Source of the DNA: Escherichia coli
GTDB lineage: Bacteria > Pseudomonadota > Gammaproteobacteria > Enterobacterales > Enterobacteriaceae
Reading direction: 5' to 3' (one strand)
NCBI RefSeq assembly: GCF_003334315.1
Contig: NZ_QOWR01000128.1
DNA length: 887 nucleotides
The notes beneath the pieces are model-generated. The model searched no databases. It saw only the letters and a list, made by a program, of their open reading frames with translations, and had not been told where the DNA came from. Below, piece by piece: positions 1 through 887 of the stretch. Positions within the stretch are counted from its first letter, which is position 1. Every line of letters begins with the position of its first letter. The position numbers were made by a program, and so were the translations under genes.

Positions 1-887
1 CCCTCAGCATGTGGCCGGATAACCGTATCGCCCGTGACGCGCACTATCTTTACCGGTATGACCGTCACGGCAGGCTGACAGAGAAAACCGACCTCATCCC
101 GGAAGGGGTTATCCGCACGGATGATGAGCGGACTCACCGGTACCATTACGACAGTCAGCACCGGCTGGTGCACTACACGCGGACACAATATGAAGAGCCG
201 CTGGTCGAAAGTCGCTATCTTTACGACCCGCTGGGCCGCAGGGTGGCAAAACGGGTATGGCGGCGTGAACGGGACCTGACGGGCTGGATGTCGCTGTCAC
301 GGAAACCGCAAGTGACCTGGTACGGCTGGGACGGCGACCGGCTGACCACAATACAGAACGACAGAACCCGCATCCAGACGATTTATCAGCCGGGGAGCTT
401 CACGCCACTCATCAGAGTTGAAACCGCCACCGGTGAGCTGGCGAAAACGCAGCGCCGCAGCCTGGCGGATACCCTTCAGCAGTCCGGCGGCGAAGACGGT
501 GGCAGTGTGGTGTTCCCGCCGGTGCTGGTGCAGATGCTCGACCGGCTGGAAAGTGAAATCCTGGCTGACCGGGTGAGTGAGGAAAGCCGCCGCTGGCTGG
601 CATCGTGCGGCCTGACGGTGGAGCAGATGCAAAACCAGATGGACCCGGTGTACACGCCGGCGCGAAAAATCCACCTGTACCACTGCGACCATCGCGGCCT
701 GCCGCTGGCGCTTGTCAGCACGGAAGGGGCAACAGAATGGTGCGCAGAATACGATGAATGGGGCAACCTGCTGAATGAAGAGAACCCGCATCAGCTGCAG
801 CAGCTTATCCGCCTGCCGGGGCAGCAGTATGATGAGGAGTCCGGCCTGTATTACAACCGCCACCGCTATTATGACCCGCTGCAGGGG
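1..887 (+). CDS. rhs: Rhs-family (YD-repeat) core protein, internal fragment from the C-terminal part of the conserved core; partial at both ends (codon phase begins at base 3)
   Basis: Manual translation of frame 3 gives 295 codons with no stop: [295 protein letters not shown]. Frames 1 and 2 hit stops within the first 80 bases (tga at 76..78, taa at 20..22). Recurrent YxYDxxGRL-type YD repeats and the terminal [15 protein letters not shown] segment are hallmarks of Rhs core proteins. The paralog (rhsA/B/C/D-like) cannot be assigned from this conserved core, so the symbol is family-level only. Confidence 0.93.
51..83 (+). other. YD-repeat unit (protein-level motif) [11 protein letters not shown]
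   Basis: Codons 17-27 of frame 3 read [11 protein letters not shown], a near-perfect match to the Rhs/YD consensus YxYDxxGRL(T/I). Confidence 0.8.
141..176 (+). other. YD-repeat unit (protein-level motif) [12 protein letters not shown]
   Basis: Codons 47-58 read [12 protein letters not shown]; YxYD followed by a basic residue and Leu, a degenerate YD repeat. Confidence 0.7.
216..251 (+). other. YD-repeat unit (protein-level motif) [12 protein letters not shown]
   Basis: Codons 72-83 read [12 protein letters not shown]; YxYDxxGR core of the YD repeat. Confidence 0.75.
318..353 (+). other. YD-repeat unit (protein-level motif, degenerate) [12 protein letters not shown]
   Basis: Codons 106-117 read [12 protein letters not shown]; aromatic-x-aromatic-D-x-x-R-L-T pattern with W in place of Y. 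Confidence 0.6.
678..716 (+). other. YD-repeat unit (protein-level motif, degenerate) [13 protein letters not shown]
   Basis: Codons 226-238 read [13 protein letters not shown]; a YxxDxxG(L) variant of the repeat. Confidence 0.55.
747..773 (+). other. YD-repeat unit (protein-level motif, degenerate) EYDEWGNLL
   Basis: Codons 249-257 read E-Y-D-E-W-G-N-L-L; YDxxGxL core. Confidence 0.55.
828..887 (+). other. N-terminal part of the Rhs repeat-associated core domain ([20 protein letters not shown]), truncated by the window end
   Basis: Codons 276-295 read [20 protein letters not shown]. The G-L-Y-Y-x-x-x-R-Y-Y-D-P-x-x-G segment is the conserved opening of the domain that, in Rhs and TcC-type proteins, continues into the DPxGL motif and the autoproteolytic site separating core from variable tip. 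The rest of the domain is beyond base 887. Confidence 0.8.

Follow-up and report, generated by a model that had tools for sequence, protein, structure and literature searches.

The final quarter of an Escherichia coli Rhs core as a multi-copy segment, a probable repeat contig and a candidate homology arm for toxin-tip exchange

The window, i.e. the whole stretch of 887 nt that was analysed, comes from the conserved core of an Rhs gene of Escherichia coli (RhsA/B/C subfamily), of which it makes up the 3′ quarter. One joint explanation very likely covers what we have found: the segment forms the final quarter of an Rhs core, would serve at the same time as a homology arm for recombination and, being repeated, was emitted by a short-read assembler as a contig of its own.

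Frame 3 of the plus strand (nt 3–887) is stop-free throughout, open at both ends and codes for a 295-aa product, a fragment of the YD-repeat shell whose assignment follows from its translation, from its profile match and from its place in the rhsC coding sequence. The product matches the NCBIfam profile NF041261 (RHS_core) over positions 935–1229 of 1261 (E=1e-188, 629.6 bits; the cutoff of this profile is 2000 bits, a score that a fragment of the size of the window cannot attain), and the full Rhs protein containing the exact window reaches 2638.8 bits against the same cutoff, over residues 1–1247. The Pfam RHS domain PF03527 was identified by hmmscan at 669–779 on the plus strand (residues 223–259, i-Evalue 8.9e-15), and the RHS repeat-associated core domain TIGR03696 (NCBIfam) is represented at 750–884 on the same strand (residues 250–294) by its first 42 positions out of 76. 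YD repeats (TIGR01643) are detected in the window with E=1.2e-7 and in the full Rhs protein with E=4.9e-41; the match of Pfam RHS_repeat in the window is weak. The GC content of the window is 58–65%. The preliminary description had placed the window entirely in Rhs core, and the stop-free frame, the NF041261 match and PF03527 agree with this placement.

In the genomes with exact matches, the window corresponds to nt 2759–3645 of the coding sequence, or residues 921–1215 of a 1399-aa Rhs protein encoded by a 4200-nt gene. The Rhs core ends at residue 1247, approximately 96 nt beyond the 3′ end of the window. The TIGR03696 domain runs on past the window up to the DPIGL motif marking the boundary between core and toxin; the motif lies outside the window and, in an exact-match genome, starts at the sixth codon past its end. 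Translation past the window in one exact-match locus (L002) passes from ...YYDPLQG into RYITQDPIGLKGGWN.... Residues 1248–1399 of the proteins in this locus and in L001 lie past the core profile, are without a Pfam match and form the variable C-terminal tip. In both loci ybfC is situated directly 3′ of the Rhs gene with a 4-nt overlap, and is presumed to be the immunity gene. Searches with the ybfO-type tip in Pfam and with YbfC in NCBIfam gave no match.

Comparison of the product with solved structures (phmmer against PDB) aligned residues 3–143 and 215–293 to Tse5 (8cp6_B). The stretch in between (432–644, plus strand, residues 144–214) was left unaligned by HMMER to solved Rhs structures; its approximately 70 residues are located between the last YD-type strands and PF03527, where the spacer of Tse5 (8cp6) has only about 27 residues, and they are included in the RHS_core profile of E. 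coli. An ORF of 188 aa lies opposite the Rhs frame (297–863, minus strand) and is treated here as a by-product of the GC-rich coding strand. The Rfam scan of both strands of the window gave as its sole result a sub-threshold chance hit to a trypanosomatid snoRNA (19.3 bits versus a gathering score of 47), and the Chi site (GCTGGTGG) is absent from the window.

The sequence is present in many copies. A megablast search of the window against 5,426 complete E. coli genomes returned 19,816 places in 3,889 of them, with a median of 5 places (range 1–15) per genome having any match. About 800 records had an identity of at least 99%, and matches of 100% occurred in only four records, those of strains STEC276, J2, 2017-19-1CC and HCP30S3_I2 from four countries, in each case over all 887 nt. 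All four exact matches reside in an rhs gene flanked by ybfA and ybfC, where K-12 has rhsC. The locus has a ‘fused’ form in these four strains, with the rhs gene followed directly by ybfC, as opposed to the order main gene (rhsC), ybfB, truncated orphan (ybfO) and ybfC that is seen in K-12 and H6. Alleles only one mismatch away from the window were found at rhsA in EC50, at rhsB in QL57EC and at the rhsC orphan in H6. With near-identical alleles at different loci across strains, the window allele is not locus-specific, and its sequence alone does not identify the locus.

Several features in the neighbourhood of these genes were recorded along the way. The main rhsC gene of H6 (L015, 1–4565) is 5′-truncated by an insertion of IS150, with ybfB and the orphan downstream intact. 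In HCP30S3_I2, ybfC (L014, 6439–7009) is annotated as frameshifted directly 3′ of an intact rhs gene with a ybfO-type tip, which could be either a real loss of immunity or a homopolymer assembly error. The K-12-type rhsD site of J2, between ybbP and mnmH (L011, 5891–7698), is empty, only a dinQ-like small toxin gene being annotated there; the rhs repertoire at this site thus differs between J2 and K-12. A few kb from rhsB, a Tn7-like island is inserted between yhiN and yhiJ-type (DUF4049) genes in both J2 (L009, 9953–46182) and HCP30S3_I2 (L022, 8818–35403). It carries sil silver/copper resistance genes in both strains, together with pco genes in J2, and is shortened in HCP30S3_I2 by IS1 elements after sil.

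Full-length copies within one genome fall into two classes by their identity to the window, with values of 98.0–100% for the RhsA/B/C type (a range covering the copies of J2, K-12 and HCP30S3_I2) and of about 77% for the RhsD/E type. In K-12, rhsA differs from the window by 8 mismatches, the orphan ybfO by 10, rhsB by 15 and rhsC by 18, and rhsD and rhsE show about 77% identity. The rhsA and rhsB genes of HCP30S3_I2 have 10 mismatches each; those of J2 have five each, at positions 617, 710, 714, 721 and 729. These five substitutions (617–729), evident from the variable-site table and the mismatch lists, set rhsC apart from both rhsA and rhsB in J2, and at all five the window has the state of the K-12 orphan fragment ybfO.

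Upstream of these sites the copies coincide. Positions 1–616 are without any variable site among rhsA, rhsB and rhsC of J2 and STEC276, cannot be assigned to a locus there and represent the 3′ end of a perfect repeat of 2.8–3.2 kb. The longest exact runs in J2 measure 3221 nt between rhsA and rhsC, 3125 nt between rhsA and rhsB and 2828 nt between rhsB and rhsC. Over nt 600–3374 of the coding sequence there are 0 differences among the three genes of J2, versus 44–94 differences (1.6–3.4%) between each of these genes and the same locus in K-12. STEC276, an independent assembly from another continent, has rhsA and rhsC DNA identical to that of J2 base for base. The statement that Rhs cores occur as near-identical paralogs therefore stands, rhsA, rhsB and rhsC of J2 and STEC276 having no differences over nt 600–3374. 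The further statement, that an 887-base window lying in core cannot be placed uniquely to one paralog, was correct in part: in J2 the first 616 nt are uninformative, and across strains the allele is not tied to one locus. For the window as a whole it is too strong, as the exact 887-mer occurs in J2 only at rhsC among the three full-length loci that were located (2 of the 6 megablast places in this genome were not located), and rhsA and rhsB differ from it at five sites (617–729) in J2 and at 10 in HCP30S3_I2. Placement of the window is thus not strictly precluded when its source genome is known, since five substitutions in its last 271 bases mark the locus in genomes with an exact match.

An exact look-up of the 295-aa product retrieved three contigs only, all shorter than 2 kb. 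One is the window itself, which constitutes a complete contig of 887 nt (L020; GCA_003334315.1, QOWR01000128.1) and whose product is named at NCBI ‘RHS domain-containing protein, partial [Escherichia coli]’. The other two are SPAdes contigs from metagenomes: L019 (ERZ1314578), with 887 nt, the same 5′ end and 2 mismatches, and L018 (ERZ4567094), with 889 nt, the same 5′ end, 5 mismatches and two extra bases at the 3′ end. Coverages given in the SPAdes names are 9.3 for L019 and 631.9 for L018, values that cannot be normalised. The 90% identity cluster of the product has 8,002 members, many of which are ‘partial’ proteins on contigs of 518–887 nt.

The ends of these contigs coincide with sites at which the gene copies begin to differ. 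Immediately 5′ of the window (position 0), rhs copies have A, C or G; at position 888, ybfO-type copies have A and main copies have C; position 890, just past the end of the 889-nt contig, is variable among rhs copies as well. The orphan of H6 has k-mers (k=55–127) in common with its neighbouring main gene over exactly 1–709 and 759–887, and at k=127 the sharing of k-mers ended at 887 in all four related complete genomes tested. A contig whose ends fall exactly on branch sites, and not k bases beyond them, corresponds to a shared repeat node of a de Bruijn graph. With the same high probability that we attach to the explanation as a whole, the window is such an assembly-graph repeat node, cut where the gene copies begin to differ. 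This accords with the assembly ambiguity that the preliminary description had suspected, the window being an entire 887-nt contig with both ends abutting paralog-variable sites. From the contig ends we infer that this contig stands for at least two collapsed copies in the source genome. As J2 lacks a variable site at position 0, a J2-like genome alone would not give a contig starting at position 1, and the other located copies in exact-match genomes differ from the window by 5–10 nt. Probably, the source strain has either an H6-like locus with main gene and orphan or more fully homogenised copies. HCP30S3_I2 was considered as a genome that would reproduce the contig by collapse and was rejected, its rhsA and rhsB differing from the window at 10 sites.

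Three other readings of the contig have to be weighed against a collapsed repeat. It is unlikely that the contig represents a single unique copy, namely rhsC of a J2-like strain, which is short since both its flanks are repeated. The exact matches in complete genomes do lie at rhsC in four cases of four, and the other full-length copies are separated from the window by 5 (J2) and 10 (HCP30S3_I2) substitutions. However, a unique edge between repeats would reach about k bases into the shared sequence and not stop at variable sites; moreover, 1–616 is common to three genes in J2, a genome in which position 0 is not a branch, and the 5′ end is the same in three assemblies whose internal alleles differ and whose contigs stop at 887 or 889.

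The branching at both contig ends might also have arisen from a mixture of strains, through contamination or in a metagenome, and not from paralogs within one genome. We consider this very improbable, as paralogs inside the single complete genome of H6 already give both ends exactly and the window-identical contig stems from an NCBI assembly with a product labelled Escherichia coli, even though two of the three contigs with such ends originate from metagenome assemblies (ERZ4567094 and ERZ1314578) and positions 0 and 888 vary between strains, too. Hardly any credence is left for an origin of the window as a chimeric consensus, occurring in no genome and created by merging SNP bubbles between paralogs. 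Such an origin could have been suspected from the mosaic of rhsA/B-type and ybfO-type sites in the window and from the sibling contigs L018 and L019, for which no exact match exists among the 5,426 complete genomes; yet the window is found at 100% over 887 nt in four complete genomes from four countries, and J2 and STEC276 agree base for base across the whole gene. For the window, a chimeric assembly consensus was consequently rejected, the exact sequence being carried by these four genomes. L018 and L019, having best identities of 99.4–99.5% and 99.9%, respectively, in the complete genomes, may be chimeric consensus sequences or unsampled alleles. L018 mixes variants from different paralogs (131C and 134C, 263A, 617C and 752T). 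Problems of short-read data at this locus are on record: a comparison of Illumina and Nanopore calls reported a discrepant Illumina SNP in rhsC (PMC6703438).

Beyond the collapsed repeat that we favour for the contig, the natural copies themselves have a mosaic structure. When the window was compared with rhsA of J2 and ybfO of K-12, 10 rhsA-type sites (80–416) were followed by 5 ybfO-type sites (617–729), and a perfect partition of 10 and 5 sites of this kind has p=6.7e-4. A three-way comparison of J2 rhsC with the main gene and the orphan of H6 revealed 4 consecutive main-type sites ending one base before the window and 8 consecutive orphan-type sites from 710 on, a pattern which implies a single crossover within 1–709 of the window. 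This interval (1–709) links the two natural forms of the rhsC locus, the fused one and that with main gene and orphan. Judging from sequence, the crossover could have proceeded in either direction, as a deletion between main gene and orphan (Salmonella-like) or as the acquisition of a new tip via C-terminal displacement, a model proposed earlier (PMC2935791). We infer from the site patterns that the mosaics are likely products of homologous recombination.

The K-12 orphan shows a pattern of its own. In its 5′ half (L005, 12213–12628, equivalent to 1–416 of the window), ybfO has six variants in common with the adjacent rhsC (131, 134, 193, 341, 350 and 416), and its 3′ half (417–887) is identical to the window and differs from the rhsC main gene at 12 sites. 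This looks like a second, independent conversion tract between main gene and orphan. The segment had been described as a substrate of recombination, and both the mosaic SNP patterns and the one-nucleotide alleles at rhsA, rhsB, rhsC main and rhsC orphan across strains speak for it. The origin of the name, a rearrangement hot spot, was likewise given correctly in historical terms, the recA-dependent unequal crossover between rhsA and rhsB being summarised in PMC2935791; the natural relevance is disputed in the same paper, which argues that rhs genes are not natural hot spots of chromosomal rearrangement.

Paralogs within a genome that are more alike than orthologues between genomes, as in J2 versus K-12, are a signature of gene conversion. 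We therefore lean towards the view that gene conversion actively homogenises the cores which an E. coli genome carries at its various rhs loci, a picture of concerted evolution drawn from two lineages only. If homogenisation is real, its conversion tracts would end inside the window, just short of the toxin tip. It would then also contradict the conclusion reached in 2009 on inter-locus recombination in clade I, according to which the cores of this clade group by genomic position and such recombination is ‘infrequent (if any)’ (PMC2935791). That assessment sits uneasily with the concerted evolution seen here.

The mechanism that would connect these observations is as follows. The window corresponds to the part of the core that is retained in the truncated downstream ‘orphan’ toxin fragments as well, and a core piece retained in orphans would provide a homology arm for RecA-type recombination. 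By one route, a full-length gene would recombine with its orphan, by which toxin tips could be swapped or displaced; by another, recombination between rhs loci would homogenise the cores by gene conversion. With several copies having the segment in common, a short-read assembler based on de Bruijn graphs would be unable to link it to unique flanks and would output it as a short contig on its own, which begins and ends where the copies first diverge.

For practical purposes, short-read calls of SNPs, gene presence and toxin tips in rhs genes are unreliable across this segment, and an isolated contig like the window cannot tell which Rhs toxin it belongs to. In biological terms, the last approximately 950 nt of the core would be the homology arm by which E. 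coli exchanges or silences the tips of its Rhs toxins, and both states of the rhsC locus, fused and with main gene plus orphan, occur in nature. The current understanding of Rhs systems is not changed by these results; their value is mostly practical, as a caution for short-read analysis.

What we have described matches the established picture of E. coli Rhs systems, in which multi-copy GC-rich cores are combined with variable tips and downstream immunity genes, orphan tips keep a piece of core and homologous recombination passes through this piece; all of this was already known. The closest relatives are the cores of the RhsA-B-C(-F) subfamily of E. coli (clade I of Jackson et al. 2009, PMC2935791), with which the window shares family and region. 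It is likewise a GC-rich part of RHS_core, its locus lies between ybfA and ybfC as rhsC does in K-12, its sequence is 98–99% identical to rhsA, rhsB, rhsC and ybfO of K-12, and there is no essential difference. Compared with K-12 rhsC itself, the exact allele sits in a fused locus, where the core bears the tip that K-12 has on its orphan (ybfO) and where both ybfB and the tip of K-12 rhsC are missing.

As a contig, the window resembles the collapsed or fragmented repeat contigs that short-read assembly yields for rRNA operons, IS elements and rhs genes: it is likewise short, stands alone, ends at the first differences between copies and recurs in independent assemblies with an identical 5′ end and a 3′ end that is almost the same. 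As a putative homology arm, it is best compared with the recombination between main gene and orphan in Salmonella Typhimurium LT2 (Koskiniemi et al. 2014, PMC3967940), where a partial core upstream of the orphan tip also supplies the homology. The shared block of LT2, over which this recombination was shown, has 522 bp at 95% identity, and the block described here has approximately 950 nt at 98–99%. Recombination was observed in LT2 by experiment, after duplication, whereas here it is deduced from natural locus variants and SNP mosaics; in both systems, it fuses, or in E. coli would have fused, the core of the main gene to the tip of the orphan.
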